Shown here one piece after another: positions 22,278 to 46,902 of a DNA stretch of 64,000 bases. The stretch's first letter is position 1; every line of letters starts with the position of its first letter. The position numbers and the translations under genes were made by a program. This DNA comes from Steroidobacteraceae bacterium (GTDB taxonomy: Bacteria > Pseudomonadota > Gammaproteobacteria > Steroidobacterales > Steroidobacteraceae): NCBI GenBank assembly GCA_019187495.1, contig JABAQN010000009.1:34934-98933 (forward strand), read 5' to 3'. The notes under the pieces were generated by a model, which saw nothing but the letters and a program-made list of their open reading frames with translations, was not told the DNA's origin and made no database searches.

Positions 22278-24662
22278 CTACGGGGAGGCAAACCCGGCCT
22301 GGTCCGGCAACGCGAACGCCATGACGTAGTCGCCGATCTTCGTGCCCATGAACTGGTGGCCCCCGGCGGCGATCACCACGTACTGCTTGCCCGTGCGCCC
22401 GGATACATAGGTCATCGCGGACGCCTGCCCTCCCGCCGGCAACCGCCCCTTCCAGAGCTCACGACCGGTCGTCACGTCGAAGGCACGCAGGTAGTTGTCG
22501 ATCGCAGCGCCGATGAACACCACGCCGCTGCGGGTGACGGTCGCTCCGCCGATGCTGAATACGCCGCGCACCGAAATGCCTAAAGGTGCGGTATCGCGCG
22601 TCGTGCCGAACGGCTCCTCCCAGAGCAGCTTGCGCGTGTCGAGATCGACCGCGGCGAGCTTGCCCCATGGCGGCGCATGGCAAGGGAAGCCGAGACGTGA
22701 CAGGAACGGACCGAACTCCGCGCCGTAGGGTGTGCCGAACTGCGGCGCCACGCTGAGGCCGCTGCCATGACCGTTGCCCGAGACCTGCATCCGCTCCACT
22801 TCCGCGCGCGGCACGAGGCGGTTGAGCAGCGGCATGTAGGAGGCGTTCACGATCATGATCCGCCGCCCCTCATCCACCGCCACACTGCCCCAGTCCATCG
22901 CGCCGAAGTTGCCGGGATACTGGATCGTGGGCGTCGTCGACGGCGGCGTGTACAACGCCTGGTAGCGCCGCTTGCGAAACTCGATGCGGCAGGCGAGCTG
23001 GTCGAGTTGCGTCGCGCCCCACATGTCCCGCTCGGTCAGCGGCTGCGGCGCAAAGCTCGGCATGCCGACCGAGAACGGTTGAGTCGGCGAGTAGCGCTCG
23101 CCGGGCACATCGCCCTGTGGCACCGCGCGTTCCTCGACTTTCGCCAGCGGATGACCATCGCGCCGGTCAAGCAGATACACCTCGCCCTGCTTCGTCGGCT
23201 GGATGAGCGCCGGCACCGTCTCGCCGTCGATCGGCAGATCGACGAGCACGGGCTGCGAGCCGACATCGTAGTCCCAGAGGTCGTGGTGTGAGGTCTGGAA
23301 CGACCAGCGCAGCTTGCCCGTCGCGGCCTCGAGTGCGATCACCGAGCTCGAGAAGCGATCGAACGACGCGGGACGCTGCGCGCCGTAGAAATCGGGCGGT
23401 GCATTGCCGGTCGGAATGTAGACGAGTCCGAGCGCGGGATCGGCGCTGAAGAGGCTCCAGGCATTCGGCGAACCGCGCGGATAGATCTCCCCTTCTTTCA
23501 ACGGCCCCATTTCAGCCGGTCGCGCGGCATCCCAGGCCCACAGCTGCTGCCCGGTGATCGCATCGAACGCGCGCACCACGCCCGAGGGTTCGTCTGTGGA
23601 AACTCCGTCGAGCACGAAACCACCGACGATCGCCGCATCGCCGACGATGGATGCCGGTGAGGTGACGAACTGGAAACCCGGAGTGACTTCCCCGAGATCG
23701 TAGCGCAGGGATATCTCGCCGTTCTTCCCGAAACTCTGGCAGCGTGCACCGGTCGCCGCATCGAGGGCGATCATGCGCGCGTCCAGAGTGGCGACAAGGA
23801 TGCGCCGCGGACAATCGGTCACGGCAGTGCGTGCCTCGTGGTAGGCGACGCCGCGGCATACCGCCATGACGACTCCCGTGACATCCACTTTCGGGTCGTG
23901 GCGCCACTTCTCCTTGCCCGTGTCGGCATCGAGGGCGACCACGATGTCACGCGGCGTGCAGAAATACAGCGTATCGCCCACCTTCAGCGGAGTCGCCTCG
24001 AAGAGGTAAGCGGGCTGTTTGCCCGGGTAGTTCTCCGGCAGGTCACCCGAACGGTACTGCCAGGCCAGCTCGAGTCGATGCACGTTCTCGGGCGTGATCG
24101 CGGTGGCCGTCGAATAGCGCGTGCCGGATTCACTCGCGCCATACGCCGTCCAGTCGGTGCCGCCCTGTGCCTGCGTTGGCGAGGGCTGCGCCGTCGACGC
24201 AGCCGATGCTGCCGGCGGATTCAGCATCCGGCTCGCACGCCAGCCGAGCCCGAGCACGACGAGCGCGGCGAGCACCACCAGCGTTGCTGCCGCCGACGCG
24301 GCGCCGCGCCGGCGCCCGTGCGGCGTCGTCTTGCCGATGAAGGCACCGCGCACCCAGGGCATCAACATGTAGAGCACGAGGGCGAGTGGCAGACCGAGTC
24401 TCGGGACCAGTTGCCAGAAATCGAACCCGACTTCGATGATCGCCCAGAGCAGCGTCGCGGCCAGCAGGCCGGCCGCAATCCACGCTGCGGACCGGCGTGC
24501 ACGCCACGCGAGCACGCCGGCCACGAACCACGCGAGCCCCGCGAGCAGGTAGTACCAGGAGCCGTCGAGGCTCGCGAGCCGCGCCCCGCCCACGATGAGA
24601 CAGGTTCCCACCGCGAGCATGACAAAACTCAATACTTTCAGGCCAATCTGTCGAATCTTCAT
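22278..24662 (-). CDS. Membrane-bound PQQ-dependent dehydrogenase, glucose/quinate/shikimate family
   Basis: Several N-terminal hydrophobic helices (MKIRQIGLKVLSFVMLAVGTCLIVGG..), then a beta-propeller with HHDLWDYDVGSQPVLVDL. Start moved to 24662 because GAGGAG lies 7 nt upstream and the N-terminus then aligns with the paralogue at 50773. The ORF-track start is 24701. Confidence 0.88.
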   Translation of the reverse strand: MKIRQIGLKVLSFVMLAVGTCLIVGGARLASLDGSWYYLLAGLAWFVAGVLAWRARRSAAWIAAGLLAATLLWAIIEVGFDFWQLVPRLGLPLALVLYMLMPWVRGAFIGKTTPHGRRRGAASAAATLVVLAALVVLGLGWRASRMLNPPAASAASTAQPSPTQAQGGTDWTAYGASESGTRYSTATAITPENVHRLELAWQYRSGDLPENYPGKQPAYLFEATPLKVGDTLYFCTPRDIVVALDADTGKEKWRHDPKVDVTGVVMAVCRGVAYHEARTAVTDCPRRILVATLDARMIALDAATGARCQSFGKNGEISLRYDLGEVTPGFQFVTSPASIVGDAAIVGGFVLDGVSTDEPSGVVRAFDAITGQQLWAWDAARPAEMGPLKEGEIYPRGSPNAWSLFSADPALGLVYIPTGNAPPDFYGAQRPASFDRFSSSVIALEAATGKLRWSFQTSHHDLWDYDVGSQPVLVDLPIDGETVPALIQPTKQGEVYLLDRRDGHPLAKVEERAVPQGDVPGERYSPTQPFSVGMPSFAPQPLTERDMWGATQLDQLACRIEFRKRRYQALYTPPSTTPTIQYPGNFGAMDWGSVAVDEGRRIMIVNASYMPLLNRLVPRAEVERMQVSGNGHGSGLSVAPQFGTPYGAEFGPFLSRLGFPCHAPPWGKLAAVDLDTRKLLWEEPFGTTRDTAPLGISVRGVFSIGGATVTRSGVVFIGAAIDNYLRAFDVTTGRELWKGRLPAGGQASAMTYVSGRTGKQYVVIAAGGHQFMGTKIGDYVMAFALPDQAGFASP

Positions 24663-24721
24663 TGCACGACTCCTCGATAATGCAAGCCTACCTCGTTTCA
24701 AGGCGCGCGGAGGTACCGCTC

Positions 24722-27619
24722 ATGGCGATCGAGTTCACTCGGCGGACTTTTCTCACCGGGGCGGGCGGCGCAGTCGCACTCTCGCTGGGGTATCTAGGCT
24801 GGCGGGTCTCGCAACCGAACGGCACATCGGCCGTACCGCCGGCGAGCGGCACGCCCGGGAGCCCCATTCCGCGCATCGCCTACGCGAGCTACGAGGATAT
24901 CTGGCGCGCGAAGTGGCGCTGGGACAGCGTCGCGAAGAGCACGCATTTCGTGAATTGCTGGTACCAGCGCGGCTGCAACTGGAACGTGTACGTCAGGGAC
25001 GGCATCGTCTGGCGCGAGGAGCAATCCGGCACCTACGAACAAATCGACGCGAAGATCCCCGACTACAACCCCCGTGGCTGCCAGAAAGGCGCGTGCTACT
25101 CCGAGCGCATGTACGACGGCGCGCGCCTCAGATATCCCCTGAAGCGCGTCGGTGAGCGTGGCGAAGGAAAATGGCAGCGCGTGAGCTGGGACGAGGGCCT
25201 GCGCGAGGTCGCCGATCGCATCATCGATGTGCTCACCTCCGACGGCCCCGGCGCCATCACCTGGGATCCCGGCACCGCCAACACCGGCGGCTGCAACGGG
25301 ATCGGCACGTTGCGCGCCGCGCACCTCCTCGACACGCCCGTGATCGACGTCAACGCCGACGTGGGCGATCACCATCCGGGTGCCCAGGCCACGGTCGGCA
25401 AGATTTCCTTTTCGGCCTCGATGGATGACCTCTTCCATTCCGACCTGATCCTCATCTGGGGCGGCAACCCGATCTACACGCAGATTCCGAACGCCCACTT
25501 CATCACGGAAGCGCGCTACAACGGCGCACGCATCGTCACGATCGCCCCGGACTACAGCGCCTCGGCGATCCATGCCGACGCCTGGATACCGGTGAATCCC
25601 GGCAGCGATGCGGCGCTCGCCCTTTCCATGGCCCATGTCATCGTGGCGGAGAACCTGCACGACACGGGCTTCATCCGCGAGCAGACCGATCTGCCACTGC
25701 TCGTGCGGCTCGATACGCGCAAGCTCCTGCGCGCGAGCGATCTCGAGCGCGGCGGGCGCGACGATCGATTCTGGATCTTCGACACCGCGACCCGGCGCCT
25801 GCAGCCTGCGAACCACAAGACGCTGGCACTCGGCGAACGACTGCCCGCGCTCGAAGGCGAGTATCAGGTCGACACGCTGCAAGGCCGCGTGAGCGTCACG
25901 CCGGCCTTCGCGCTGCTGCGTGCGCAGCTCGCGCAGAACTCGCCGGAGAAGGCGGCGGCGATCACCGGTGTCGATCCGGACGTCGTACGGGATCTCGCCC
26001 GCCGGATCGCGGCCGCGCGGGCCGCAACCTGCCTCACGCAGTCCAACTTCTCCAAGTACTACCACGGCCTCGAAATGGAGCGCTGCCAGATCCTCGTGCT
26101 GACTCTGTGCGGACAGATCGGGCGCAAGGGCAGCGGCATCACGGGCTTTCCCGCCATGGCCGCGAGCGGCATCGATGCCGTCTCGGCCGCGCCGGGCTCG
26201 CTGACTCCGAAGCTCGGCGCGATGCTGCTCGAGATGAAGGCGATGCCTCGTGCCCTGCAGGCGAAACTCGCGGGCCTCACCGACGAAATGATCGCGTACG
26301 AACTGATGCGCGATTTCTATCGCAGCGGCAATCTCGTCTCCGGCAATCTCTTCTGGCATCAGGTGGGGCTCGGCGATCTCTACGGCAGTTCCGCCCGCTG
26401 GGACCCGAGCATGAAGCGCGAACTCTGCGCCTTCCTCGAGGATGCCTTCAGGGAAGGCTGGCAGATCCAGCCCTCGACGACGCGCCAGCGAATCTTCCTC
26501 GAGGTGGGCGGCAACATCCTGCGCCGCACACGGGCCTACGACCGGCTCCAGGAAAGTTTCATCGCCGGCCTCGACCTGCTGGTGACGCTCGACTGGCGGA
26601 TGAGCAATACGGCGTTGCACAGCGACTATGTGTTCCCGGCCGCCGGCTGGTACGAAAAGGACGATATCACCTGGGCGACGCCGCTCGCGCCATATGCCCA
26701 CGTGGTGACGCGCGCGGTGCCGCCGCTCGCCGAATCGAAGTCCGACTGGGCGTTCAACGCGCTCCTGATGAAAACCGTGCAGCAGCGTGCACGCGAGCGC
26801 GGCATCCGCGACTTCACCGATCGCGCCGGCAAGACGCGCCGCCTCGACGAGGTGTTCGACCAGTTCAGCTTCGGCGGTCGCTTCGACGAACTCGGCGAAG
26901 AGAAGATGATGCAGGAACTGATGTCCATGGTGGACAACCTCGGCGGCATCAGCTGGGAGGAGATCAGGAAGAAGGGATATGCGCGCTACACCGGTCTCGG
27001 CACGCAGTTCCTGAACCTCGGCAACGCCACCGACATCAAGGCCGACGAAACGATCACCGCCAACACCTGGCACACTGAGAAGAAGCAGCCCTGGCCGACG
27101 CTCACGCGGCGCATCCAGTTCTATATCGACCATCCATTCTTCCTCGAGCAGGGCGAACAACTGCCCTCGCACAAGGACAGCCCCGCGATCGGGGGCGCCT
27201 ACCCGCTGCGCATGACCTGCGCGCACGCGCGCTGGTCGATCCACGCGAGCTGGCGCGATGACAAGTACCTGCTGCGCCTGCAGCGTGGCGAACCCGAGAT
27301 CCAGATCGGAACCCGGGACGCGGCGCGCCGCGGCATCGTCGACGGCGACCGGGTACGCGTCTACAATGACATCGGCTCCTTCAAGACGCTGGCGAAAGTG
27401 GTACCTGGACTGCGCCCCGGGCAGGTGCTCGTCCATCACGCCTGGGAACCCTTCCAGTATGAGGACGGCAAGTCTTACGCGACCGTGACAGCCAACCCTC
27501 TCAATCCGCTGCAGCTCGCCGGTGGCTATTTCCACCTGCAGCCCCTGCCGAATGCCGGCACACCGGGACCGGCGGACCGGGACACGGTCGTCGAGGTCGA
27601 GCGCATGATATCGGCATGA
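24722..27619 (+). CDS. Type II DMSO-reductase-family molybdopterin oxidoreductase alpha subunit (NarG/EbdA/steroid C25 dehydrogenase-like), orphan copy
   Basis: Start at MAIEFTRRTFLTGAGGAV (twin-arginine motif; GGAGG 8 nt upstream). It carries the His/Cys FS0-type motif HFVNCWYQRGC..GCQKGAC. The segment DDLFHSDLILIWGGNPIYTQIPNAHFITEARYNGARIVTIAPDYSASAIHAD aligns with the recalled NarG region ADWYNSSYIIAWGSNVPQTRTPDAHFFTEVRYKG.. No beta or gamma genes are adjacent. Confidence 0.88.
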   Translation: MAIEFTRRTFLTGAGGAVALSLGYLGWRVSQPNGTSAVPPASGTPGSPIPRIAYASYEDIWRAKWRWDSVAKSTHFVNCWYQRGCNWNVYVRDGIVWREEQSGTYEQIDAKIPDYNPRGCQKGACYSERMYDGARLRYPLKRVGERGEGKWQRVSWDEGLREVADRIIDVLTSDGPGAITWDPGTANTGGCNGIGTLRAAHLLDTPVIDVNADVGDHHPGAQATVGKISFSASMDDLFHSDLILIWGGNPIYTQIPNAHFITEARYNGARIVTIAPDYSASAIHADAWIPVNPGSDAALALSMAHVIVAENLHDTGFIREQTDLPLLVRLDTRKLLRASDLERGGRDDRFWIFDTATRRLQPANHKTLALGERLPALEGEYQVDTLQGRVSVTPAFALLRAQLAQNSPEKAAAITGVDPDVVRDLARRIAAARAATCLTQSNFSKYYHGLEMERCQILVLTLCGQIGRKGSGITGFPAMAASGIDAVSAAPGSLTPKLGAMLLEMKAMPRALQAKLAGLTDEMIAYELMRDFYRSGNLVSGNLFWHQVGLGDLYGSSARWDPSMKRELCAFLEDAFREGWQIQPSTTRQRIFLEVGGNILRRTRAYDRLQESFIAGLDLLVTLDWRMSNTALHSDYVFPAAGWYEKDDITWATPLAPYAHVVTRAVPPLAESKSDWAFNALLMKTVQQRARERGIRDFTDRAGKTRRLDEVFDQFSFGGRFDELGEEKMMQELMSMVDNLGGISWEEIRKKGYARYTGLGTQFLNLGNATDIKADETITANTWHTEKKQPWPTLTRRIQFYIDHPFFLEQGEQLPSHKDSPAIGGAYPLRMTCAHARWSIHASWRDDKYLLRLQRGEPEIQIGTRDAARRGIVDGDRVRVYNDIGSFKTLAKVVPGLRPGQVLVHHAWEPFQYEDGKSYATVTANPLNPLQLAGGYFHLQPLPNAGTPGPADRDTVVEVERMISA
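24911..24993 (+). repeat. 83-nt block identical to the reverse complement of 41081..41163 (arm 1 of an inverted repeat)
   Basis: Compared base by base. Both arms read aagtggcgctgggacagcgtcgcgaagagcacgcatttcgtgaattgctggtaccagcgcggctgcaactggaacgtgtacgt, encoding KWRWDSVAKSTHFVNCWYQRGCNWNVYV. Confidence 0.95.
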
Positions 27620-28755
27620 CGCGGACGTCTGCGCGCGCGGAGATTCGGGATTTCAGCCAGCTGCTGCTGCGCTTGCACGAAGGCGCGGCCGACCCGGGAC
27701 GCTGGCGCGAGTTCCTCGAACTCATCGGGCGACGCCTGCGGGCGAACTATGCGACGCTGGTGCTGCGCTCACCTGCTCTCGGTGAAAGCGGGTTGCTTTA
27801 CACATGGGGAGCAGGCACCGAGGGTACGGCGGCGTACACAGGGCACTACTACGCGCTCGATCCGTTCGTGCATCTCCCGGAGGGCCAGGTCGTGACGCTG
27901 CACGAATTCGTCGGCAGGGAACGCCTCGAGACGAGCGAGTTTTTCCGTGAATACATGCAGCCTGTCGACGCGATCTACATCCTCGGCATCGACTTGCACC
28001 AACCGGGCCAGTACTACCTCAAATTCCGCGTCTGCCGCTCCGCGCGCACCGGTGAGTTCGAGGCGGCTGCGCGGCGGTTCTGCGAATTGCTGATCCCGCA
28101 CTTGCGCACGGCCATCCGCACGCATGCCGTACTCGATCTGACACGCACCGAGCGCAGCATCTATGCGGATGCGATGACCGACCTGATGCTCGCCACGATC
28201 ATTCTCGACGAGGACGCGCGCGTCGTGCACACGAACGAACTCGCCCGGAAAGTCCTGGGTGAACGCAGGGGCATCGCTCTCGAAAATGCCGCGCTTGTCT
28301 TCGACGACCGCAGGCTTGCGCAGCGCTTCCGCGCCGCCTTCGCGCGCGCCCTCGAGGCGGGCCGGACCGGTTCATCCGGAATCGTGGAGGCCATACGCGT
28401 GCAACGAGTGCCCGCCGAAAGCCAGCTCGGCATGATCATCCGGCCGGGCTGGCCCCGCCTGCGCGAGTCGGACTCACCCATGACAGGCTCGGTCGCCGTT
28501 TTCCTGAGCACCGACACCGGCACCCGTGACGCCCCCACGGCGAGCGTGCGCGAACTGTTCGGCTTCACCGAGAAGGAGGCGCAGCTCGCCCTCTCGCTCG
28601 CCAATGGGCGCACCATCCAGGAGGCCGCTGTCGATCTCGGCATGAGCCTGCACACGGCGCGCACCCATCTGCGCGCGATCTATGCCAAGACCGGGATCGA
28701 TCGCCAGGCGAAGCTCGTGCGCGCCATCCTGCGCAGCGTGGCCGCGCTCAGCTGA
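27616..28755 (+). CDS. LuxR-family transcriptional regulator (C-terminal HTH, ~300-aa N-terminal sensor-like domain)
   Basis: C-terminus FGFTEKEAQLALSLANGRTIQEAAVDLGMSLHTARTHLRAIYAKTGIDRQAKLV. Its ATG overlaps the alpha-subunit stop (ATGA at 27616..27619). Confidence 0.88.
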   Translation: MTRTSARAEIRDFSQLLLRLHEGAADPGRWREFLELIGRRLRANYATLVLRSPALGESGLLYTWGAGTEGTAAYTGHYYALDPFVHLPEGQVVTLHEFVGRERLETSEFFREYMQPVDAIYILGIDLHQPGQYYLKFRVCRSARTGEFEAAARRFCELLIPHLRTAIRTHAVLDLTRTERSIYADAMTDLMLATIILDEDARVVHTNELARKVLGERRGIALENAALVFDDRRLAQRFRAAFARALEAGRTGSSGIVEAIRVQRVPAESQLGMIIRPGWPRLRESDSPMTGSVAVFLSTDTGTRDAPTASVRELFGFTEKEAQLALSLANGRTIQEAAVDLGMSLHTARTHLRAIYAKTGIDRQAKLVRAILRSVAALS

Positions 28756-28761
28756 GCGCGC

Positions 28762-29780: not shown

Positions 29781-30584
29781 TCATGACGCCGCGAGCAACG
29801 CCAGCCAGTCGCGGCTGCGATCGGCATAAACAACGAAGTGCGGATTCAGGATATCCGCCTTGGCGTTGTAATCGAGCGGCTGGCCGTCGAGCCTCAGCAC
29901 GAGGCCTCCGGCCGCACACACGACCGCTTGCGCGGCTGCGGTATCCCACTCCGAAGTCGGCCCGAGACGCGGATAGATATCCGCGGCGCCTTCCGCGACC
30001 ATGCAGAACTTCAGCGAGCTGCCCACCGGCACGAGCTCGTGCGGGCCGAGTCGCGCGAGAAATGCGTCGAGCGTATCCCCGCGGTGCGACTTGCTGCCGA
30101 CGACCCGCACCGGCGAGGCCGCATGCGACTGCACGCGAAGTGGCTCGGCGGCACCCTCGTCTCGCCTGCGCCAGGCGCCTGCTCCCGACCGCCCCGAGTA
30201 CGTCGTGGCTCGCACGGGTACGTGCACCACGCCGAGCACGGGCGTGTGATCTTCGATGAGTGCGATGTTGACCGTGAACTCGCCGTTGCGCGACAGGAAC
30301 TCCTTGGTGCCATCGAGCGGATCGACCAGCCAATAGCGCTGCCAGCGGCGACGCTCCTCCCACGGCACCTCGTCGGCCGATTCCTCGGAGAGCACCGGGA
30401 TCTCGGGTGTCAGCTCATGCAGCGACTCGACGATCACGCGATGCGCGCGCAGGTCCGCGAGCGTGAGCGGGGAATCGTCGGCCTTGGTACGCGCTCCGAC
30501 ATCCTGCGAGGCGTAGACGTCGAGGATCTCGGCACCGGCGCGCCGTGCGATATCGACGACGGAATCGAGGAGTGCTGCGTTCAT
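29781..30584 (-). CDS. cysQ: 3'(2'),5'-bisphosphate nucleotidase CysQ
   Basis: [24 protein letters not shown] ... SPLTLADL ... [12 protein letters not shown] ... [18 protein letters not shown]. Its ATG overlaps the cysNC stop (ATGA). The longer 564-aa ORF in the track is an artefactual upstream extension. Confidence 0.9.
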
Positions 30585-32488
30585 GTGGGACTCAGCATAC
30601 CCGCCTCGGTGAGGAAGGCGACGATGCGATCGGCGGCCTGCTCGGGGGAGGTGGAGGTGGTCTCGAGGTGGATCTCGGGGTGCTCGGGGGCTTCGTAGGG
30701 GGAGTCGACGCCGGTGAAGTGCTTGAGCTCCCCGCGGCGGGCCTTCTGGTACAGCCCCTTCACGTCGCGCCGCTCGGCCTCGGCGAGCGGGGTGTCGACG
30801 AACACCTCGAGGAACTCGCCGGGGGCGAGGAGCTCGCGCGCCATGCGCCGCTCGGCGCGGAACGGGGAGATGAACGAGACGAGCACGATGAGCCCGGCAT
30901 CGACCATCAGCTTCGAGACCTCGGCCACGCGGCGGATGTTCTCGACGCGGTCCTGGGCCGTGAAGCCGAGGTCCTTGTTGAGCCCGTGGCGCACGTTGTC
31001 GCCATCGAGGAGATAAGTGTGCCGGCCCATCGAGAGGAGCCGCTTCTCGACGAGATTCGCGATCGTCGACTTGCCCGCACCCGACAGGCCCGTGAGCCAC
31101 AGCACGCAGGCCCGCTGCCCCTTCTGGCGCGCGCGCGTCGCCTGGTTCACATCGAGCGCCTGCCAGTGCACGTTCTGCGAGCGCCACAGCGCAAAGTGCA
31201 GCAGCCCCGCCCCGAGCGTGGCGTTGGTGAGGCGGTCGATCAGGATGAAGCCCCCGAGCGTGTGATCCTCCCCGTAGGGGGCGAACGGGATCGGCCGGTC
31301 GAGCTTGAGCTCGCACACCCCGATGTCGTTCAGCTCGAGTGTCTCGGCCGCCAGGTGCTCGAGCGTGTTGACGTTGATCTTGTACTTCAGCGGCGCGATC
31401 GTGGCCGAGGCCGTGCGCGTGCCGATCTTGACGAGATAGTCGCGGCCCTGCAGCAGCGGGGCATCGTGCATCCACACGATCGTCGCCTCGAACTGGTCCG
31501 CCACCTGGGGCGGGGCGTCGGCCGCGCCGATCACATCGCCGCGGCTCACGTCGATCTCGCTGTCGAGCGTGAGCGTGACCGACTGGCCGGCGACCGCGCG
31601 CTCGAGGTCGCCGCCGGCCGTCACGATGCGTGCCACGCGGCTCTCACGCCCCGAGGGGGCGACGCGGATCCGATCGCCCGGGCGCACGGTGCCGCTCGCG
31701 ATCAGTCCGGCAAAGCCCCGGAACTCGTGGTTCGGGCGGTTCACCCACTGCACGGGCAGCCGAAACGGCTTGCCCGAGTCCTCCTCCCCCACCTCCACGG
31801 TCTCCAGGTGCTGCATGAGGGTGGGACCGTGGTACCAGGGCATGTTCGGGCCCGGCTCGAGGATGTTGTCGCCGTAGACGGCCGACAGCGGGATCGCGGT
31901 GATGTCGGTGAGGCCCACCTGGGCGGCGAAGTCGTGGTACTCCTGCAGGATCGTCCTGAACACGTCCTCGGCATAGCCCACGAGGTCCATCTTGTTGATC
32001 GCGAGCACGATGCGGCGGATCCCCAAGAGCGACACCAGGAAGCTGTGCCGGCGGGTCTGGGTGAGCACGCCCTTGCGCGCATCGATCAGGATCACGGCGA
32101 GATCCGCCGTCGAGGCCCCCGTCACCATGTTGCGCGTGTACTGCTCGTGCCCCGGGGTGTCGGCCACGATGAACTTGCGCCGCTCGGTCGAGAAGAACCG
32201 GTAGGCCACATCGATCGTGATGCCCTGCTCGCGCTCGGCGGCGAGCCCGTCGACCAGCAGCGCAAAGTCGATCTCCCCGCCCCGCGTGCCCACCTTCTTC
32301 GAGTCCGCCTCGAGCGCGGCGAACTGGTCCTCGAACACCATCTTCGACTCGTACAGCAGCCGCCCGATCAGCGTCGACTTGCCGTCGTCCACCGACCCGC
32401 AGGTGATGAAGCGCAGCAGGCTCTTGTGCTCGTGCGCCGTAAGGTACCCCTCGATGTCGCGCGCGATCAGTTCGGATTTGTGTGACAT
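30581..32488 (-). CDS. cysNC: Bifunctional sulfate adenylyltransferase subunit 1 / adenylylsulfate kinase (CysN-CysC fusion)
   Basis: 635-aa ORF. GTPase motifs [23 protein letters not shown] and NKMD, followed by the APS-kinase P-loop [13 protein letters not shown]. Confidence 0.95.
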
Positions 32489-33441
32489 CAGAAGTAGCCC
32501 TCCTGCTTCTTCTTCTCCATCGAGCCGGCGGCATCGTGGTCGATGAGGCGCCCCTGGCGCTCCGAGGTCGTCGTGAGCAGCATCTCCTGGATGATCTTCG
32601 GCAGCGTGTCCGCCTCGCTCTCGATCGCCCCGGTCAGCGGGTAGCAGCCGAGCGTGCGAAAGCGCACGGTCTTCATCTCGGGCTTCTCCCCCGCCTTCAA
32701 CGGCAGCCGCTCATCGTCCACCATGATCAGCATCCCGTCGCGCTCCACCACCGGGCGCGGGGCGGCAAGATACAGCGGCACGATCGGGATGCCCTCGAGG
32801 TAGATGTACTGCCACACATCGAGCTCGGTCCAGTTCGAGATCGGGAACACCCGGATGCTCTCCCCTTTCCCCTTGCGCGTGTTGTACAGGTTCCAGAGCT
32901 CGGGGCGCTGGTTCTTCGGATCCCAGCGGTGCGCGGCCGAGCGGAACGAGAACACCCGCTCCTTCGCCCGCGACTTCTCCTCGTCCCGCCGCGCCCCGCC
33001 AAAGGCGGCATCGAAGCCGTATTTATCCAGCGCCTGCTTCAGCCCCTGCGTCTTCATCACGTCCGTGTGCACCTGCGAGCCGTGCGTGATCGGGCCGATC
33101 CCCTGCGCCAGGCCCTCCGGATTGACATGCACCAGCAGCTCCATGCCGCTCTCGCGCGCCATGCGGTCGCGAAACGCGTACATCGCCTTGAACTTCCACG
33201 TCGTGTCCACGTGCAACAGCGGAAACGGCGGCGGCGCGGGGTAAAACGCCTTGCGCGCCAGGTGCAGCAGCACCGAGGAGTCCTTGCCGATCGAGTACAG
33301 CATCACCGGCTTGTCGCACTCGGCCACCACTTCGCGAAAGATCTGGATGCTCTCCGCCTCGAGGCGCTGGAGGTGCGTGAGCACATCCGCACGTGCATGC
33401 TGGGTGGAAGAGGTGGTGGTAGCCGAAGCGACTCGATTCAT
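32488..33441 (-). CDS. cysD: Sulfate adenylyltransferase subunit 2 CysD
   Basis: 317-aa ORF with [18 protein letters not shown] (PP-loop) and a typical CysD C-terminus ...[10 protein letters not shown]. Its stop overlaps the cysNC start by 1 nt (TGATG). Confidence 0.95.
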
Positions 33442-34010: not shown

Positions 34011-35468
34011 TCACTTCATCATTCGATCGATCACCGAACGGTAGCGTTTGCCGAAGGGCGGCCGCATGCCGAAGAGATCGGTGAGGTTGATTCTCGATTG
34101 CACGTAGACGGCGCGCGCGTGCGAGAAGCGCTTGAATCCTTCGTACCCATGGTAGGCGCCCATGCCGCTCGGGCCGACGCCACCGAAGGGCAGATCCTCG
34201 CACCCCGAGTGCGCGGCGATGTCGTTGACGGTCACGCCGCCGGACTGCGTTCGCGCGATCACGCGCTCGAGTTCCGGTCCTCCACGTCGGCCGAAGTAGT
34301 ACAGCGCGAGCGGATGATCCCGGCCATTGATGTAGTCGATCACCTCGTCGATGTCGCGGTAGGTTCGAATCGGCAGCAGCGGCCCGAATATTTCCTCGCG
34401 CATGATCGGCTGGTCATCGGCCGGATTGATGACCAGCGTGGGCGGCAGCTTGCGCGCGGGCGATCCGCGAAACGATTCGTTCGCCGGATTCAGCTCGATG
34501 ACCTCGGTGCCCGCGGCGGCGGCGGCGTCCCGGTAGCCCTGCAACCGCGCCAGGTGGCGCCCGTTGATGATCGATGTGTAGTCCGGATTGTCGAGGAGGC
34601 GCGGATACATGCGTCCCACGGCGGCGCGCAGTGCCTCCACGGTGTCGCGCAACCGCTCCTCGGGGACGAAGAGATAGTCGGGGGCGATGCAGATCTGCCC
34701 GGCATTGCTCAGCTTGAAATCGACGATGCAGGCCGCCGCCCTGTCGAGCCCCATCGGCAGCTCGCGACTCACGATCACCGGTGACTTGCCGCCGAGTTCC
34801 AGGGTCACCGGGACCAGATGCTCGGCCGCCGCACGCATGACGTGGCGCGCGATCGTGCCGGCTCCCGTGAACATCAGATGATCGAAGGGTAGCGCCGCGA
34901 AAGCTGCGCCAATATCGAGTCCTCCGGGGAACACCGCCACTTCCTCCTCGCTGAAGTAGCGCGCGACGAGTTCGGCGAGCAGTGCGGAATTGTGCGGCGT
35001 GAACTCCGAAGGCTTGATCATGGCCCGGTTGCCGGCCGCCAGGATATCGGTGAGCGGCGTCACGGCAAGGTTTACCGGGAAATTCCACGGCGCGATCACG
35101 CCGACGACGCCGAGCGGCTGGTAGCGTATGCGGGCTCGCGCGCCGAACAGCGACGGCAGGAAGGCGACCTTGCGTCGCTCGTCCCGCATCCACACGGAGA
35201 GGTGCTTCTGCGCGTAGCGGATCGCGGAGACCGGGTAGGCGATCTCCGTCATCGCGGCGTTCTGGATCGAACGCTCCCCGAAATCCGCGCGCAGCGACTC
35301 GCAGAGCGCGCGCTCATTCTCCTTCAGCAGCGAGGCGAGTCGCTCGAGGCGATCGATGCGCGTGCGCAGGTCGGGCGCCCCCTGCGCACGCTGCGCGGCT
35401 TTCTGCCGCTCGAGCGTTCGGCGCAATCGGTCGGCGGAATCGACTTCGTTGCCGCGTGCATCGATCAC
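34011..35468 (-). CDS. NAD(P)-dependent aldehyde dehydrogenase (ALDH3 / coniferyl-aldehyde dehydrogenase-like)
   Basis: GVIAPWNFP, ELGGKSP and catalytic Cys in NAGQICIAPDY. Proposed GTG start at 35468 overlaps the chaperone stop (GTGA). The 665-aa ORF in the track is an upstream extension through the chaperone gene. Confidence 0.88.
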   Translation of the reverse strand: MIDARGNEVDSADRLRRTLERQKAAQRAQGAPDLRTRIDRLERLASLLKENERALCESLRADFGERSIQNAAMTEIAYPVSAIRYAQKHLSVWMRDERRKVAFLPSLFGARARIRYQPLGVVGVIAPWNFPVNLAVTPLTDILAAGNRAMIKPSEFTPHNSALLAELVARYFSEEEVAVFPGGLDIGAAFAALPFDHLMFTGAGTIARHVMRAAAEHLVPVTLELGGKSPVIVSRELPMGLDRAAACIVDFKLSNAGQICIAPDYLFVPEERLRDTVEALRAAVGRMYPRLLDNPDYTSIINGRHLARLQGYRDAAAAAGTEVIELNPANESFRGSPARKLPPTLVINPADDQPIMREEIFGPLLPIRTYRDIDEVIDYINGRDHPLALYYFGRRGGPELERVIARTQSGGVTVNDIAAHSGCEDLPFGGVGPSGMGAYHGYEGFKRFSHARAVYVQSRINLTDLFGMRPPFGKRYRSVIDRMMK

Positions 35469-36154
35469 GAGGGAACGCCCTTGCGCGGGCTGCGCGAGGC
35501 GGGGCCGTGAACCGTCTCGAGCTGCTCGAGATCGGCCGCGAGACAGCGCTCGAGCAGATCGACGAGCCCGGCGTAGAACGCCATGGGCCTGCGGGCCTCT
35601 AGCTTGCCGCGCATCATCGGAATCCAGCGGCCCGGGTGGCGCGCGATGAAGTCGCGCCGCCCGAGCTGGTAGGACGAAGGATCTTCGCCCTGGTCGATCA
35701 ATTCCGCCTCGCCGTACGCGAGCACGTGCAGGAACTCGAGCTCCGCCGACAGATGATCCGGTGTGTCGCCGCCCTTGCCCGTCGGCGTGAGCCCGAAGTG
35801 CTGGTAGAAACGCAGCACTTCTTCCATCGTCGTCATCTGCGGTCCGACGTGCAGGCCGCCATAGAGCGAACACGGGGATGCCGAGGTGCCCGCATCGAAA
35901 AGCCGCGTGTACTCGGTGGCGAGGGTACCCTCGCCGTCGCCCCCGACTTCCGCGAGAGCGTGCAGGTCGATGGGGCCAGGCAGCGGGGGTTCGAGCTTGC
36001 CGAGCCATTCCTCGAAGCGCGCGGCGAGCACGCCCGCGCGGATCGCCTCGAGCAGCTCGCCGCGCGGATAACCGAATGCCTCGGAGAAGAGCGCGTAGAG
36101 GGCACTGCGCGCCGCGGCAACCCGCGCAAAGGGCAGCTGCAGCTCACCGGTCAT
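35465..36154 (-). CDS. TorD/NarJ/DmsD-family redox-enzyme maturation chaperone (delta subunit)
   Basis: Start MTGELQLPFARV, with its ATG overlapping the upstream stop (ATGA at 36151..36154). Family motifs LATEYTRLF and PDHLSAELEFLHVL. Confidence 0.82.
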   Translation of the reverse strand: MTGELQLPFARVAAARSALYALFSEAFGYPRGELLEAIRAGVLAARFEEWLGKLEPPLPGPIDLHALAEVGGDGEGTLATEYTRLFDAGTSASPCSLYGGLHVGPQMTTMEEVLRFYQHFGLTPTGKGGDTPDHLSAELEFLHVLAYGEAELIDQGEDPSSYQLGRRDFIARHPGRWIPMMRGKLEARRPMAFYAGLVDLLERCLAADLEQLETVHGPASRSPRKGVPS

Positions 36155-38457: not shown

Positions 38458-41352
38458 TCATCCGATTTTCTCGATCTCTACGCGCGTCGCCCGATCGGTC
38501 GAGCCCGGACTGAACACCGCCGGCATCGGCTGCAGGTGGTAGTAGCCGCCGGCGAGCTGGACCGGATTGATCGGATTCGGCGTGAGTGTCGAATAGCTCT
38601 TGCGGTTGGGGTACATGAACGGCTCCCAGGCGTGATAGCAGGTCGCCTGGCCCGGGCGGTGCGCCGCCGCCACTTTGACCTGCATCTCGCTCGAGTTGAT
38701 GTCGTTGAATACCCGCACGCGATCGCCGTCTTCGATGCCGCGTGCGAGCGCATCCTCGACGCTCATGTAGATGACCGGCTGGCCACGATTGAGGCGCAGC
38801 ATGTACTTGTCATCGCGCCAGCTCGCATGGATCGACCAGCGGGTATGGCCACCGGTCATGTAGAGCGGATAGTTGCCGCCGATGTTCGGCTGGTCCTTGT
38901 GCACCGGCAGCCGCTCGCCGAGCTCCTCATAGAAGGGGTGGTCGATGCAGAACTGCAGCCGGCGGGTGAGCGTGGGCCAGGGCATTTTCTTCTCGGTGTG
39001 CCACAGGCCCGCCGTGATCGTATCGTGCTCGCTGACGTCGGTGGCATTGCCGATATTCATGAACCCGTTGTCACCGAGCGCCGTGAAGCGCTGGAAGCCC
39101 TTCTCCTTCAGCTTCTTCCAGTCGACATCGCCGACATTGGTGGACACGTCGAGGATGAGATCCAGCAACTCTTCGACGTTGTCCTCGTGGTAGCGACCGT
39201 CGAAGGTGAACTGATCGTAGACGTCGAAGCGGCGCTCCTCGCCGTGGCGATCCTTGAATGTCCCGATGCCACGCTCGGCGGCGCGCCGTTGTATCGTCTT
39301 CAGCAGCAGGCAGTGGATTTCCCAGTCGGGTTTCGCTTCCGCGATGGGCTTCGCCGCGCGCGTCACGACCTGGGAGAAGGGCGAAAGCGGCGTCGCCCAG
39401 GTGATATCGTCCTTCTCGTACCAGGCCGCCGCGGGCAACACATAGTCGCTGTAGAGCGCGGTGTTGCTCATGCGCCAGTCGATCGTCACCATCAGATCGA
39501 GGGTCGGCAGCAGCTTCTCGATCATCACGTCGTAGCCGCGGAAGCGTCGCAGCACGTTGCCGCCGGCCTCCATGAAGATGCGCGGCCGGGTCGCAGGCTT
39601 GAAATGCCAACCCTTCTCGATCGCTTCATCCATGAAGGACGACAGCGGGCGCTTCATCGCCGGGTCCCACTTTTCCGAACTGCCGTAGAGCTCCTTGTAG
39701 CCCCCCTGGTGGTAGAGCCACAGCAGGCTCGGCGGAAAAGCGCCGTGGCGAAACTCGTCACGCGCGAGGTCGTAGATGGTCATTTCCTTCGTGTGCCCGC
39801 GCAGCTTGTCGGCGATGAAGCGCGGCGCCATCTTCAGGCCGAGCGCCGCGAGCTGCAGCTTCGGATTGCCCTGCCCCTTGAGGTTCGCGAGGGCATCTGT
39901 TCCATCCACCGACAAATAGGGGAACGCCATGTAGCCGGCGCCCTTGCGGCCCATTTGCCCGGCGAGCGCAAAACACAGGATCTGCGCGCGCTCCATCTCG
40001 ATGCCATGGTAGTACTTGGAGAAATTCGACTGGGCGATGCAGGTCGCCGCGCGCGCCTTCGCGAGATCGCGGGCCAGCTGCCGGATGACCTCCGGGTCAA
40101 CCCCGCAGATCGCCACGGCCTTTTCGGGCGCGTACTGCTGCAGGTGCTCGCGCAATTGCGCAAACACGGGTCGCACTTTCAGCTTCCCGTTCCAGGTATC
40201 GATCTCGAACTCGCCCTCGAGCGCCGGATCGAGATCGCCCAGGTCCAGGGTCCGCTGCGAGATTTCGACGCGCCGGCCCGTGGCGCGATCGAAGACATGG
40301 AACCGGTCGTCGGCACCGCCCTGCTCCACATCCGAGCCCCGCAGGAGCCGGCCGTTGTCGACGCGCGTCAGCAGCGGCAGATCGGTCTGCTCCTGGACAT
40401 AGCGCTTGTTGTAGATGCCTTCCTCGATCATCACGTGCGCCATCGAAAGGCCGAGGGCGGCGTCCGTCGCCACTTTCACCGGCACCCACTGGTCGGCGTG
40501 GACCGCCGAGGCCGAGTAGTCCGGCGCGATGGTGATGACGCGCGCCCCGTTGTAGCGCGCTTCCGTGATGAAATGGGCCTGCGGGATCTGGGTGTAGAAG
40601 GGATTGCCGCCCCAGATCAGGATCAGGTCGGAATGGAAGAGATCGTCCGACGAACTGCAATGCACCATCTTGCCCGTGGTCACGCAGAAGCCGGGGCGGT
40701 GATCTCCGATTTCCGTGTTGACATCGAGCACCGGCGTGTCGAGCACGAGCGACGTGCGCAACATCGCAAAGCCGGCGCCACCGTTCGTCTGGGCGGTGCC
40801 CTGGTCCCAGATCACCGAACCGGGGCCCTCCGCGGAAATCATGGCATCGATCAGCTTGTCGGCGATATCGGTGAGCGCTTCATCCCAGCTCACGCGCTGC
40901 CATTTGCCCGCGCCGCGCTCGCCGGCGCGCTTCAGCGGATAGCGCATGCGCGCCCCGTCGTACATGCGCTCGGAGTAACAGGCGCCCTTCTGGCAGCCGC
41001 GCGGATTGTAGTCGGGAATCTTCGGACTGATTGGTTCGTAGGTTCCGGACTGCTCTTCGCGCCAGACGATGCCGTCCTTCACGTACACGTTCCAGTTGCA
41101 GCCGCGCTGGTACCAGCAATTCACGAAATGCGTGCTCTTCGCGACGCTGTCCCAGCGCCACTTGGCGCGCCAGATGTCCTCATAGCTCTCGTAGGCGACG
41201 CGTGGAATCGGGCTGCCGTGCCCGCCCGGGGTGGCCGCGCCGATCGACGCATCGCCGGGTTGCGCCGCGCGCCAGCCGAGATAGCCGAGCGAGAGCACCA
41301 CCGCGCCACCGGCGCCGGTGAGGAATGTCCGTCGTGTGAGCTCGATTGCCAT
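38458..41352 (-). CDS. Type II DMSO-reductase-family molybdopterin oxidoreductase alpha subunit (EbdA / steroid C25 dehydrogenase-like)
   Basis: Start MAIELTRRTFLTGAGGAV (Tat motif; GGAG upstream). FS0 motif HFVNCWYQRGC..GCQKGAC. About 60% identical by eye to the orphan alpha at 24722. The ORF-track start 41433 adds an unlikely extension. Confidence 0.9.
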   Translation of the reverse strand: MAIELTRRTFLTGAGGAVVLSLGYLGWRAAQPGDASIGAATPGGHGSPIPRVAYESYEDIWRAKWRWDSVAKSTHFVNCWYQRGCNWNVYVKDGIVWREEQSGTYEPISPKIPDYNPRGCQKGACYSERMYDGARMRYPLKRAGERGAGKWQRVSWDEALTDIADKLIDAMISAEGPGSVIWDQGTAQTNGGAGFAMLRTSLVLDTPVLDVNTEIGDHRPGFCVTTGKMVHCSSSDDLFHSDLILIWGGNPFYTQIPQAHFITEARYNGARVITIAPDYSASAVHADQWVPVKVATDAALGLSMAHVMIEEGIYNKRYVQEQTDLPLLTRVDNGRLLRGSDVEQGGADDRFHVFDRATGRRVEISQRTLDLGDLDPALEGEFEIDTWNGKLKVRPVFAQLREHLQQYAPEKAVAICGVDPEVIRQLARDLAKARAATCIAQSNFSKYYHGIEMERAQILCFALAGQMGRKGAGYMAFPYLSVDGTDALANLKGQGNPKLQLAALGLKMAPRFIADKLRGHTKEMTIYDLARDEFRHGAFPPSLLWLYHQGGYKELYGSSEKWDPAMKRPLSSFMDEAIEKGWHFKPATRPRIFMEAGGNVLRRFRGYDVMIEKLLPTLDLMVTIDWRMSNTALYSDYVLPAAAWYEKDDITWATPLSPFSQVVTRAAKPIAEAKPDWEIHCLLLKTIQRRAAERGIGTFKDRHGEERRFDVYDQFTFDGRYHEDNVEELLDLILDVSTNVGDVDWKKLKEKGFQRFTALGDNGFMNIGNATDVSEHDTITAGLWHTEKKMPWPTLTRRLQFCIDHPFYEELGERLPVHKDQPNIGGNYPLYMTGGHTRWSIHASWRDDKYMLRLNRGQPVIYMSVEDALARGIEDGDRVRVFNDINSSEMQVKVAAAHRPGQATCYHAWEPFMYPNRKSYSTLTPNPINPVQLAGGYYHLQPMPAVFSPGSTDRATRVEIEKIG
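41081..41163 (-). repeat. 83-nt block identical to 24911..24993 in inverted orientation (arm 2)
   Basis: See arm 1. Mismatches lie immediately outside both ends. Confidence 0.95.
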
Positions 41353-41371: not shown

Positions 41372-42451
41372 TCAGAGCGTCGCCGGATCTTTCGTGAAGT
41401 CCGGGAAGATGTCCTCGGGCCAGCGATAGACAATCAGGATGTCCATGAGCTCGGACTCCTCGCCTCGGGCCTTCTTCGCCTTCTCTTCGTCGATGATCGC
41501 GAGCGACTCCCTGACGCGCGGCCCGAACAGCCGCTCGAGGTACTCGGTCGGAATGCGCGGCTTCGATGGATCCGGCTTGCCCGTTTCCGTCACGCTCGGC
41601 GGCGAGAGCGGCGGCACATAGAAGACATTCGGATCGGTACCGAATTCCTCGTGCAGCGGCAGGGCCACCTTCCACTTGTGCACGAGCTTGTGGATGGGTC
41701 CGTTCTCGTCATCGAGATAGCCGACGAAGCGCATGCGTCCCGGACACTGCCGGGCGCAGGCTGGTGCAACGCCCTGGTCGATGCGCGGGAAGCAGAAAAT
41801 GCACTTCTGCGACACGAGCTTCACGTGGTTGTAGTAGATGCGCTTGTACGGGCAGGCCTCCATGCAGAAGCGATAGCCTTTGCACTTCTGGTCATCGATC
41901 AGCACGATCCCGTCCTGCTCACGCTTGTAGATGGCGCCCCGCGGGCAGGCTTCGAGGCAGGCCGGATGCGTGCAGTGATTGCACAGGCGCGGCAGATAAA
42001 AGAAGTGGGAGTTCGGGTACTCGCCGCCACCCTCGTCCTCGTCCCAGTTCGGCCCCCACTTCGGCTTCTCACCCTTGAAATTCGTGGGCTGCAGATAGGC
42101 CTCCTTGCCCCCGCCGTCGAACAGCACTTCCTTCTGGTTGAACTGCCAGGCGTCGCCATACTCCTCGCGCCCCGGGATGCGGCTCGGGCGCGCGAGACCA
42201 TTCGCCTCGAATCCGCCGCCCATGGTTTCGTAGTCCTTCGGCGTCCCCTTGCCCGGCGCGGTATTGACCACGGCCCAGTACATCTCCTCCATGCCCTCCT
42301 CGCGGGTCCACTGCGTCTTGCAGGCGATCGAGCAGGTATGGCAGCCAATGCATTTGTTGAGGTCGAACACCATCGCGAGCTGGCGCCTCGGCTTGACGAC
42401 CTTACCGTCGATTTCGCGCCCGATCCGCGCCGCCTGGTCCAATGGATTCAT
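41372..42451 (-). CDS. Fe-S subunit (beta; NarH/EbdB-like, four Cys clusters)
   Basis: Start MNPLDQAARIGREIDGKVVKPRRQLAMVFDLNKCIGCHTCSIACK (GGAGGG RBS). Further clusters are CNHCTHPACLEACP, CKGYRFCMEACP and CIFCFPR..CARQCP. Confidence 0.9.
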   Translation of the reverse strand: MNPLDQAARIGREIDGKVVKPRRQLAMVFDLNKCIGCHTCSIACKTQWTREEGMEEMYWAVVNTAPGKGTPKDYETMGGGFEANGLARPSRIPGREEYGDAWQFNQKEVLFDGGGKEAYLQPTNFKGEKPKWGPNWDEDEGGGEYPNSHFFYLPRLCNHCTHPACLEACPRGAIYKREQDGIVLIDDQKCKGYRFCMEACPYKRIYYNHVKLVSQKCIFCFPRIDQGVAPACARQCPGRMRFVGYLDDENGPIHKLVHKWKVALPLHEEFGTDPNVFYVPPLSPPSVTETGKPDPSKPRIPTEYLERLFGPRVRESLAIIDEEKAKKARGEESELMDILIVYRWPEDIFPDFTKDPATL

Positions 42452-43115: not shown

Positions 43116-43118
43116 CGT

Positions 43119-46748: not shown

Positions 46749-46902
46749 CCCCGTGGGCCGGCTGTCGATGCCACAGCGACCGGTCGATCTTAGCCAGCAG
46801 GGCGAGCAGCGCCTTACGTGATTACCGACTGGTCAATTCTGATTAGGCCTTTCGCGCGATCGCGCTTTTGTCGAGACTCCTGCGTGTTAAGGTCCGACGA
46901 CC

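Follow-up and report, generated by a model that had tools for sequence, protein, structure and literature searches.

This work concerns alpha', a catalytic subunit of an oxygen-independent molybdenum hydroxylase of the EBDH/S25DH type (EBDH, ethylbenzene dehydrogenase; S25DH, steroid C25 dehydrogenase) that is encoded apart from any beta, gamma or delta gene in a 64,000-nucleotide stretch of DNA (the window) from an uncultured Steroidobacteraceae bacterium. From gene content, gene order and phylogeny, we find it probable that alpha' is a functional orphan subunit which shares its partners: beta1, gamma1 or gamma2, and the chaperone delta. The window (contig C11:34934-98933) belongs to a 3.57-Mb metagenome-assembled genome of 80 contigs, 91.5% complete, whose closest relatives are Steroidobacteraceae genomes. 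Below, contigs of this genome carry C numbers, other genomes G numbers and related loci L numbers. The genes on which the argument turns are these:

24722..27619, plus strand: alpha', an uninterrupted open reading frame of 965 residues; predicted orphan catalytic subunit (molybdenum-bis(pyranopterin guanine dinucleotide) and FS0, the iron-sulfur cluster of alpha itself), an EBDH/S25DH-like hydroxylase of the type II DMSO reductase family
24722..24811, plus strand: twin-arginine translocation (Tat) leader of alpha', with the arginine pair at codons 7-8; TRRTFL is residues 6-11, followed by a hydrophobic stretch
38458..41352, minus strand: alpha1, the operon alpha, in relatives always followed by sulfotransferase and DUF1214 genes
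41372..42451, minus strand: beta1, four-cluster Fe-S subunit (PF13247), start ATG at 42451; probable shared partner
42456..43115, minus strand: gamma1, EB_dh haem b subunit (PF09459); probable shared partner
35465..36154, minus strand: delta, TorD/NarJ-type chaperone (PF02613, 62.8 bits at 35615-35944); its start ATG at 36154 overlaps the DUF1214 stop

The operon of alpha1 runs on the minus strand through genes for a Zn alcohol dehydrogenase (Zn-ADH), a short-chain dehydrogenase/reductase (SDR), a CoA ligase, gamma, beta, alpha1, a sulfotransferase, a DUF1214 protein, the TorD-like delta and an aldehyde dehydrogenase. An earlier reading of the window from its letters (the sequence-only reading) had placed a single partner set in this operon, and such a set is present; its gene order had to be corrected to gamma-beta-alpha, with delta three genes further on. 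That reading also had alpha' standing alone, as it does: there is no beta, gamma or delta gene from 19 kb to 34 kb of the window, and the nearest beta and gamma lie 14 kb off. Genome-wide, we counted three alphas, two betas, two gammas and one delta of the EBDH type, with NarGHJ in addition. No second delta copy was found in the genome by tblastn, and delta is the only TorD/NarJ-type chaperone besides NarJ. Two of the alphas are in the window. The third, alpha3 (C4:9214-12138, 44% identical), is directly preceded and overlapped by beta2 (C4:8112-9248), which is 60% identical to beta1.

The second gamma is itself displaced. Gamma2 (C4:2602-3261) is 97% identical to gamma1 in protein, and it sits within a 725-nt, 96%-identical nucleotide copy (C4:2602-3333 against window 42463-43187) that also takes in the final 72 nt of the CoA-ligase gene upstream. 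The pair beta2-alpha3 (locus L014) is about 5 kb away and has no other gamma near it. Because gamma2 stands alone on C4, the genome has an orphan gamma besides its orphan alpha. To judge by these genes, subunits move between complexes in this genome, beta2-alpha3 having only a gamma1 copy nearby, and a near-identical gamma already serves two different alpha-beta pairs. By the sequence-only reading, further beta and gamma genes dedicated to alpha' elsewhere would have spoken against borrowing; the whole-genome search returned none, only a second possible partner set on C4. We rejected that set as one dedicated to alpha', since beta2 overlaps alpha3 and gamma2 copies gamma1. The neighbourhood of beta2-alpha3 (C4:3400-13300, L014) may be an acquired island: these approximately 10 kb have about 60% G+C, against 66-69% around them, and carry genes for an SDR, a SnoaL protein, a TonB receptor, beta2, alpha3 and an AraC regulator.

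Sharing of this kind has a precedent in the cholesterol degrader Sterolibacterium denitrificans, as the sequence-only reading had stated, and the precedent is real: in the numbering of that organism S25DH1 is alpha1-beta3-gamma3 and S25DH2 is alpha2-beta3-gamma3, with one chaperone, SdhD (PMC6016249). There, too, alpha genes lack beta-gamma, carry a Tat leader, rely on one TorD-like chaperone and outnumber the beta-gamma sets, and the gene order gamma-beta-alpha is that of the window operon. S25DH1 and S25DH2 use the beta-gamma encoded beside another alpha; for alpha' the same sharing is predicted. Thauera aromatica K172 was a working expression host for S25DH and S26DH. The two cases differ also in that alpha' falls outside the clade of S25DH1-4, its nearest S. 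denitrificans relative being alpha8 at 63%, and in that its host is an uncultured member of the Steroidobacteraceae where a LuxR gene, a pyrroloquinoline quinone (PQQ) dehydrogenase and a cassette for synthesis of 3'-phosphoadenosine 5'-phosphosulfate (PAPS) accompany the orphan. The proposal that alpha' borrows beta, gamma and the TorD-like chaperone from the operon 11 kb away is supported by this precedent, by the 3:2:2:1 count of the genome and by a 2:1:1:1 count in G030 (Bin_35), a genome of the same genus rated 100% complete, which has orthologues of alpha' and alpha1 with one EBDH-type beta, one gamma and one delta. Under sharing, alpha' would have lost its own gamma-beta genes, would be matured by the single chaperone of the distant operon and would be exported via Tat as a heterotrimer with beta1 and with gamma1 or its 97%-identical C4 copy.

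Several features suggest that alpha' is a functional catalytic subunit: an intact frame, a Tat leader, cofactor ligands and purifying selection. The sequence-only reading had seen a second full-length Tat-signal alpha, about 60% identical to the operon copy; the alignment gives 597/965 identical residues (62%) with alpha1 over the full length. The N-terminus, MAIEFTRRTFLTGAGG, is a twin-arginine leader that fits the S/TRRxFL/I motif of PMC7411048 (Suppl. Table 3), and in its stretch MAIEFTRRTFLTGAGGAVALSLGYLGWRVSQP 28/32 residues are identical to the alpha1 leader. We considered these near-identical leaders as a specific sign of one chaperone and down-weighted them, as this leader type runs through both clades and many genomes. 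Both alphas have the Pfam domains PF00384 and PF01568 (128.8 and 58.3 bits in alpha'). TIGR03479 (type II DMSO reductase alpha) is the best model for both, at 918.5 bits for alpha' and 946.6 for alpha1, each below the curated cut-off of 984.75; with the EbdA equivalog model NF042978, alpha' scores 656 bits against a cut-off of 2000. In EBDH we take FS0 to be held by one His and three Cys, an Asp to be the Mo ligand and a Lys to belong to the active site. The EBDH alpha subunit (2IVF_A) aligns to residues 7-959 of alpha' (E = 7e-187), placing His75, Cys79, Cys85 and Cys120 at the FS0 ligands and Asp216 and Lys445 opposite Asp223 and Lys450. Fold family and all cofactor ligands are thus held in common with EbdA, which differs in having His192 where alpha' has Thr185 and in its operon order (ebdABCD against gamma-beta-alpha). 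The dN/dS ratio of alpha' against three orthologues is 0.11-0.15, compared with 0.105 for alpha1 and 0.135 for the downstream luxR.

Orthologues of alpha' are 80-87% identical to it and occur in four kinds of gene context:

L016, L017, L103/L104: gamma-beta-alpha', with the full ADH-SDR-CoA ligase-gamma-beta-alpha' in L103/L104
L015 (6494-12895), L037 (6398-12889): cysD-cysNC-cysQ-alpha' on one strand with gaps of at most 15 bp, the alpha' orthologue being the fourth and last gene
L105: a divergent TetR gene, then alpha' and a glutathione S-transferase gene
L093/L094: alpha'-luxR (ATGA overlap, MTRT N-terminus), convergent on delta-DUF1214-sulfotransferase-...-alpha1

Because the orthologues in L016, L017 and L103/L104 have gamma-beta directly upstream, the orphan state of alpha' is best read as derived, having arisen within the genus by gamma-beta loss. 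G198, of the same genus, retains beta-alpha'. Compared with beta1, the betas beside the orthologues in L016 and L017 show 81% and 75% identity; compared with beta2, 58% and 57%. At L093 the immediate neighbour of alpha'-luxR is the alpha1 operon, with its delta-DUF1214-sulfotransferase end. In the 77 related loci it is common for an alpha to have no beta-gamma beside it, or for two or three alphas to share one gamma-beta; 9/201 sampled genomes of the family have any such alpha.

Gene conversion across the FS0 segment

The two alphas of the window resemble each other unevenly. Their longest exact match is the core of a conversion tract over the FS0 domain:

24911..24993, plus strand: 83 nt of alpha' identical to alpha1 at 41163-41081

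The tract spans approximately codons 52-135 of both genes (window 24875-25126 and 40948-41199). In a 203-nt segment around the match, alpha' and alpha1 differ at 21 sites, fewer than the 26-44 that separate alpha' from its orthologues; the corresponding pair in G030 has 16 differing sites, against 33-48 to orthologues. In the tree of codons 52-135 the alpha' of the window groups with its alpha1 (support 0.89) and the two clades dissolve, whereas the other 2664 nt separate the alpha' and alpha1 clades with support 1.0. These trees point to recurrent gene conversion that has homogenised the FS0 segment of alpha' and alpha1. Conservation alone was rejected as the source of the 83-nt identity, since other genomes differ at at least two positions inside it and the segment tree regroups the paralogues by genome.

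In EBDH and NarGH, electrons pass from the alpha subunit to beta by way of FS0. A passage of PMC8840923 likewise describes FS0 as the cluster that passes electrons to beta. The conversion tract is consistent with both alphas docking on one beta.

Over this segment, paralogues within a genome group together in two or three genomes in all, the comparison of L015 with L026 included.

The alpha'-luxR locus and its regulator

The gene downstream of alpha' encodes a sensor-LuxR regulator. The surroundings of the two genes are as follows:

24663..24721, no strand: divergent control region, 59 bp between the PQQ dehydrogenase gene and alpha', with a GGAGG ribosome-binding site at 24709-24713
22278..24662, minus strand: membrane-bound PQQ dehydrogenase of the glucose/quinate/shikimate family, divergent from alpha', start ATG at 24662 (PF01011, 766 bits; TIGR03074, 989 bits, above cut-off)
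27616..27619, plus strand: ATGA overlap, the alpha' stop TGA (27617-27619) lying over the luxR ATG (27616-27618) in gcATGAcg
27616..28755, plus strand: sensor-LuxR one-component regulator of 379 residues, with a GAF/acyl-homoserine lactone (AHL)-receptor-like domain, a long helix, a PAS-like domain and a LuxR-type helix-turn-helix (HTH)
28744..28759, no strand: perfect 16-nt palindrome GCGCTCAGCTGAGCGC, which covers the luxR stop where two genes converge and may form a bidirectional hairpin (fold energy of 40 nt, -19 to -21 kcal/mol)
29781..33441, minus strand: cysD-cysNC-cysQ, a cassette for PAPS synthesis and 3'-phosphoadenosine 5'-phosphate phosphatase (Pfam), convergent on alpha'-luxR

Two of these features, the 59 bp that part alpha' from the divergent PQQ-dehydrogenase start and the overlap of its stop with the luxR start (ATGA at 27616), had been described in the sequence-only reading and are confirmed. 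Its further claim, that co-translation of alpha' with a regulator is unusual, does not stand: of about 22 same-strand junctions from 12.5 to 53 kb, 9 are overlaps of the ATGA, GTGA or 1-bp kind. The overlap is unremarkable because such overlaps are the local norm, and it is ordinary operon packing, though conserved in a second lineage. L093 and L094 share the overlap and the MTRT N-terminus (alpha 87% and LuxR 80% identical), and L096 has the same overlap with an identical 80-nt junction stretch and a LuxR protein 99% identical. The order alpha'-luxR-CMD-CMD-cysQ, again with a 99%-identical LuxR protein, recurs on contigs of three other samples, so that the layout is not an assembly artefact. 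Samples DRR438484, SRR27217540 and SRR27217541 contain the same organism, judged by the 99% identity of the LuxR protein.

The GGAGG upstream of alpha' and its spacing are kept at the orthologous locus L093, whereas no Shine-Dalgarno sequence precedes the luxR ATG. Because luxR has no ribosome-binding site of its own, in contrast to the conserved one at alpha', termination-reinitiation is likely for luxR: alpha' and luxR would form one transcription unit, and ribosomes ending at the alpha' UGA and restarting at the overlapping AUG would make the regulator at a low, fixed ratio. The scan of 24663-24721 turned up no consensus sigma-70 promoter, and counts of consensus promoters and terminators were no better than in shuffled sequence. 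The palindrome at the end of luxR lacks a T-run; the convergent stops of luxR and a CMD-family gene are 6 bp apart there, and the palindrome might act as a terminator. Orthologues of the PQQ dehydrogenase (62-75%) occur within the alpha' or alpha1 clusters of L015, L037 and L021, and L105 also has a PQQ gene. The PAPS cassette, on the same strand as alpha' in L015 and L037, is inverted in the window. By this context, alpha'-luxR would be part of the same super-cluster as the sulfotransferase operon, the PAPS cassette and the PQQ alcohol dehydrogenase, a cluster that would oxidise a sterol or isoprenoid side chain without oxygen.

The regulator is, as modelled, a LuxR-type HTH joined to two sensor domains. 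Pfam gave weak matches to PF00196 (GerE; 19.0 bits against a cut-off of 23.5, residues 317-369) and to PAS_4 (residues 192-251). In precomputed annotation its relatives appear as CsgD/LuxR-family PAS proteins, many with PF00196 and also PF08448. The AlphaFold2 model (pLDDT 83.8, pTM 0.72) has an N-terminal alpha/beta sensor domain, a long helix, a PAS-like domain and a four-helix HTH; its Foldseek matches include EL222, VqmA, RhlR, SdiA and TraR, and the N-terminal domain matches the ligand-binding domain of VqsR (TM 0.74 on the target). VqmA and EL222 similarly fuse a sensor domain to a C-terminal LuxR-type HTH (Foldseek probability 1.0), yet the window protein has two sensor domains, the N-terminal GAF/AHL-receptor-like one and the PAS-like one, and shares only 14-17% sequence identity with them. 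The genome has five paralogues of the regulator, and family members occur in steroid-type clusters with ChsH2-like, thiolase-like, KstD-like and sulfotransferase genes. A search for a shared operator found no 9-mer common to at least three of the regions 24663-24721, L093 upstream, operon upstream (46749-46902) and cysD upstream.

Upstream of the alpha1 operon, four genomes (window 46749-46902; L021:4400-4631; L026:4380-4604; L022:3000-3218) share a block GAATTGAC(C)-N12-16-(T/C)ACGTAAGG(C/T)GC. This GAATTGAC...ACGTAAGG block is probably a promoter or operator of that operon, and it is absent upstream of alpha'.

Another association of orphan alphas with such regulators was seen in a third Steroidobacteraceae clade (L032, L036 and L040, the same as L116-L118), about 70% identical to alpha1 and mostly without upstream beta-gamma. 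In all three loci a sensor-LuxR-family paralogue (34-37%) lies 0.3-0.8 kb downstream of the orphan alpha. L040, and also L038, a member of this clade that keeps an upstream beta, have a gamma gene downstream on the opposite strand.

Probable shared partners and the alternatives

Several observations weigh against shared partners or the expression scheme attached to them. The FS0 segment is the most conserved part of the protein, so selection adds to the similarity of the two alphas, and gene conversion alone does not establish a shared beta. No motif is common to the regions upstream of alpha' and of the operon. A promoter-like site within alpha' (27339-27367, 9/12 match; one of two such sites in an 8-kb scan, with 0.8 expected by chance) could be the start of a separate luxR transcript. 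With the genome at 91.5% completeness, a dedicated beta-gamma set could sit in the unassembled part. Finally, G130, the genome of L037 and 95% complete, has cysDNQ-alpha' as its only EBDH-like alpha, and our searches of it for EBDH-type partners returned NarH- and NarJ-like matches but neither beta nor gamma nor delta. The partner genes of G130 may be unassembled, alpha' may work there without them, or it may be a relic there.

That alpha' has its own beta-gamma, perhaps with a chaperone, in the approximately 8.5% of the genome that is unassembled, and borrows nothing, seems improbable to us. The incompleteness of the assembly and its 80 contigs leave room for such a set, and some alpha' orthologues do have their own gamma-beta. 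But the position that gamma-beta would take directly upstream of alpha' is occupied by the divergent PQQ gene, 59 bp away, alpha' and luxR are arranged alike on the independent contigs from other samples, and the complete genome G030 manages two alphas with one beta and one gamma. We give a similarly slim chance to a pairing of alpha' with beta2 and the gamma copy on C4 in place of beta1. A second beta exists, the lone gamma copy is on the same contig, and no sequence feature forbids the pairing; yet the evident partner of beta2 is alpha3, which it directly precedes and overlaps, beta2 is 57-58% identical to the betas native to alpha' orthologues where beta1 is 75-81% identical, and the FS0 conversion links alpha' to alpha1, not to alpha3. 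Very improbable is a silent or decaying leftover of duplication, or an alpha' that works without beta and gamma, for which the G130 orthologue might speak, given purifying selection as strong as on alpha1, an intact frame with all cofactor ligands, a conserved ribosome-binding site and the finding that the S25DH alpha alone gave no soluble or active protein (PMC6016249).

Possible catalytic role of alpha'

The phylogeny places alpha' without naming its reaction. Its best match from a named organism, P0026 (63%), begins MESKPGMIGMDRRSFLKAGGSALALSLCHLELL and is, by the leader table of PMC7411048, alpha8 (DH8) of S. denitrificans (WP_067170975 / AFF61343), the only protein of that species among the best 120 matches and the closest homologue of alpha' in a cultured, studied organism. 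The tree joins the alpha' clade to that of alpha8 as its sister. DH8, an uncharacterised enzyme described as "rather distantly related" to DH5-7, comes with a gamma-beta-alpha-delta cluster of its own, flanked by TetR and LysR genes, whereas the window alpha' has none. Alpha' lies outside the clades of S25DH1-4 (alpha1-4) and S26DH1-3 (alpha5-7), its distance to S. denitrificans alpha1-7 being indirect. The alpha1 of the window belongs, with a "T. terpenica EbdA-like" protein, to a clade in which sulfotransferase-DUF1214 comes after the alpha gene. By this placement, neither window alpha can be called S25DH or S26DH.

In relatives including Thauera terpenica 58Eu, genes for a ChsH2-like hydratase and a thiolase-like protein were seen between alpha1 and the sulfotransferase (L093:12214-14804, with gaps of about 2.6 kb in L021 and L050). 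The window operon does not have them.

If alpha' shares its partners, it may make an oxidisable (primary or allylic) alcohol for PQQ or Zn alcohol dehydrogenases while alpha1 makes an alcohol that needs sulfation. We hold this division of labour as a tentative proposal, somewhat short of an even chance. The context favours such a second-step role because alpha1-clade genes are followed by sulfotransferase-DUF1214 in ten loci, while alpha'-clade genes never are and adjoin PQQ or Zn alcohol dehydrogenases; because alpha' ends the PAPS operon in two genomes and G030 keeps one alpha of each kind; and because S26DH2 requires a separate alcohol dehydrogenase.

Alternatively, alpha' might be an isoenzyme that performs the alpha1-type hydroxylation, at a tertiary or unactivated side-chain carbon, on a different substrate, that is, a swappable specificity module on a shared beta-gamma and not a second step. 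We regard this as a genuine possibility, though one we would sooner doubt than adopt. S25DH1-4 are such alpha isoenzymes on near-identical beta-gamma sets (PMC6016249). In L103/L104 an alpha' orthologue (82%) takes the place in ADH-SDR-CoA ligase-gamma-beta-alpha that alpha1 has in the window operon. An alpha'-clade gene is often missing from genomes that carry the alpha1-sulfotransferase-DUF1214 operon (e.g. T. terpenica G006, G007, G009 and G131), and co-transcription with PAPS synthesis would also suit a tertiary-alcohol product needing sulfation. On the other hand, the two alphas, at 62% identity, are more diverged than the S25DH isoenzymes (72-82%; PMC6016249) and fall in separate, deeply split clades; their neighbours differ consistently, sulfotransferase-DUF1214 in one case and PQQ or Zn alcohol dehydrogenases in the other, and G030, a minimal complete genome, keeps exactly one alpha of each kind.

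The second-step role can be carried further, to the idea of a hydroxyl shift driven by sulfate, in which alpha' would be the second hydroxylase and act on a primary or allylic carbon; as a whole we consider this idea rather unlikely. Its model is S26DH1 and S26DH2, allylic C26 hydroxylases and the second Mo enzyme of a C25-to-C26 hydroxyl shift (PMC7411048, PMC11061730): there, too, a second paralogous Mo enzyme acts after activation of a tertiary alcohol and elimination. The alcohol dehydrogenase that S26DH2 requires separately might be supplied here by the PQQ neighbour of alpha'. However, the S26DHs have their own gamma-beta-alpha clusters and activation in their pathway is by ATP (kinase and lyase), not PAPS, whereas alpha' lies outside the DH5-7 clade; being sister to the uncharacterised DH8 and not to S26DH, it lends the second-hydroxylase idea of the sequence-only reading no S26DH placement. 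In such a shift, alpha1 would leave a tertiary alcohol as a dead end in the periplasm; its esterification would fall to the cytoplasmic sulfotransferase, supplied by cysD-cysNC-cysQ; the DUF1214 protein would expel sulfate to give an alkene; alpha', on the same beta-gamma, would hydroxylate the neighbouring methyl group; and the divergently encoded PQQ dehydrogenase would oxidise the resulting alcohol in the periplasm. The sensor-LuxR, sharing an mRNA with alpha', would sense a pathway intermediate.

Neither an orphan alpha nor a regulator gene that overlaps it is out of the ordinary by itself, and the case of alpha' mirrors that of S25DH1 and S25DH2. What the comparisons suggest is that one beta-gamma-delta chassis with several alphas is not peculiar to Sterolibacterium: it would have arisen again in one Steroidobacteraceae genus, via gamma-beta loss, and gene conversion over the FS0 segment would accompany the sharing of subunits. 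The EBDH/S25DH family performs water-based hydroxylation of unactivated C-H bonds and is used for 25-hydroxyvitamin D3 synthesis, and its modular alpha subunits are the handle by which its specificity can be changed. If the hydroxyl shift were true, it would be a PAPS-dependent counterpart of the ATP-dependent cascade of S25DH, kinase/lyase and S26DH. Together with sulfotransferase-DUF1214, the tie of the orphan alpha to PAPS synthesis offers a concrete two-enzyme test of sulfation as the replacement for phosphorylation in the anaerobic activation of side chains.

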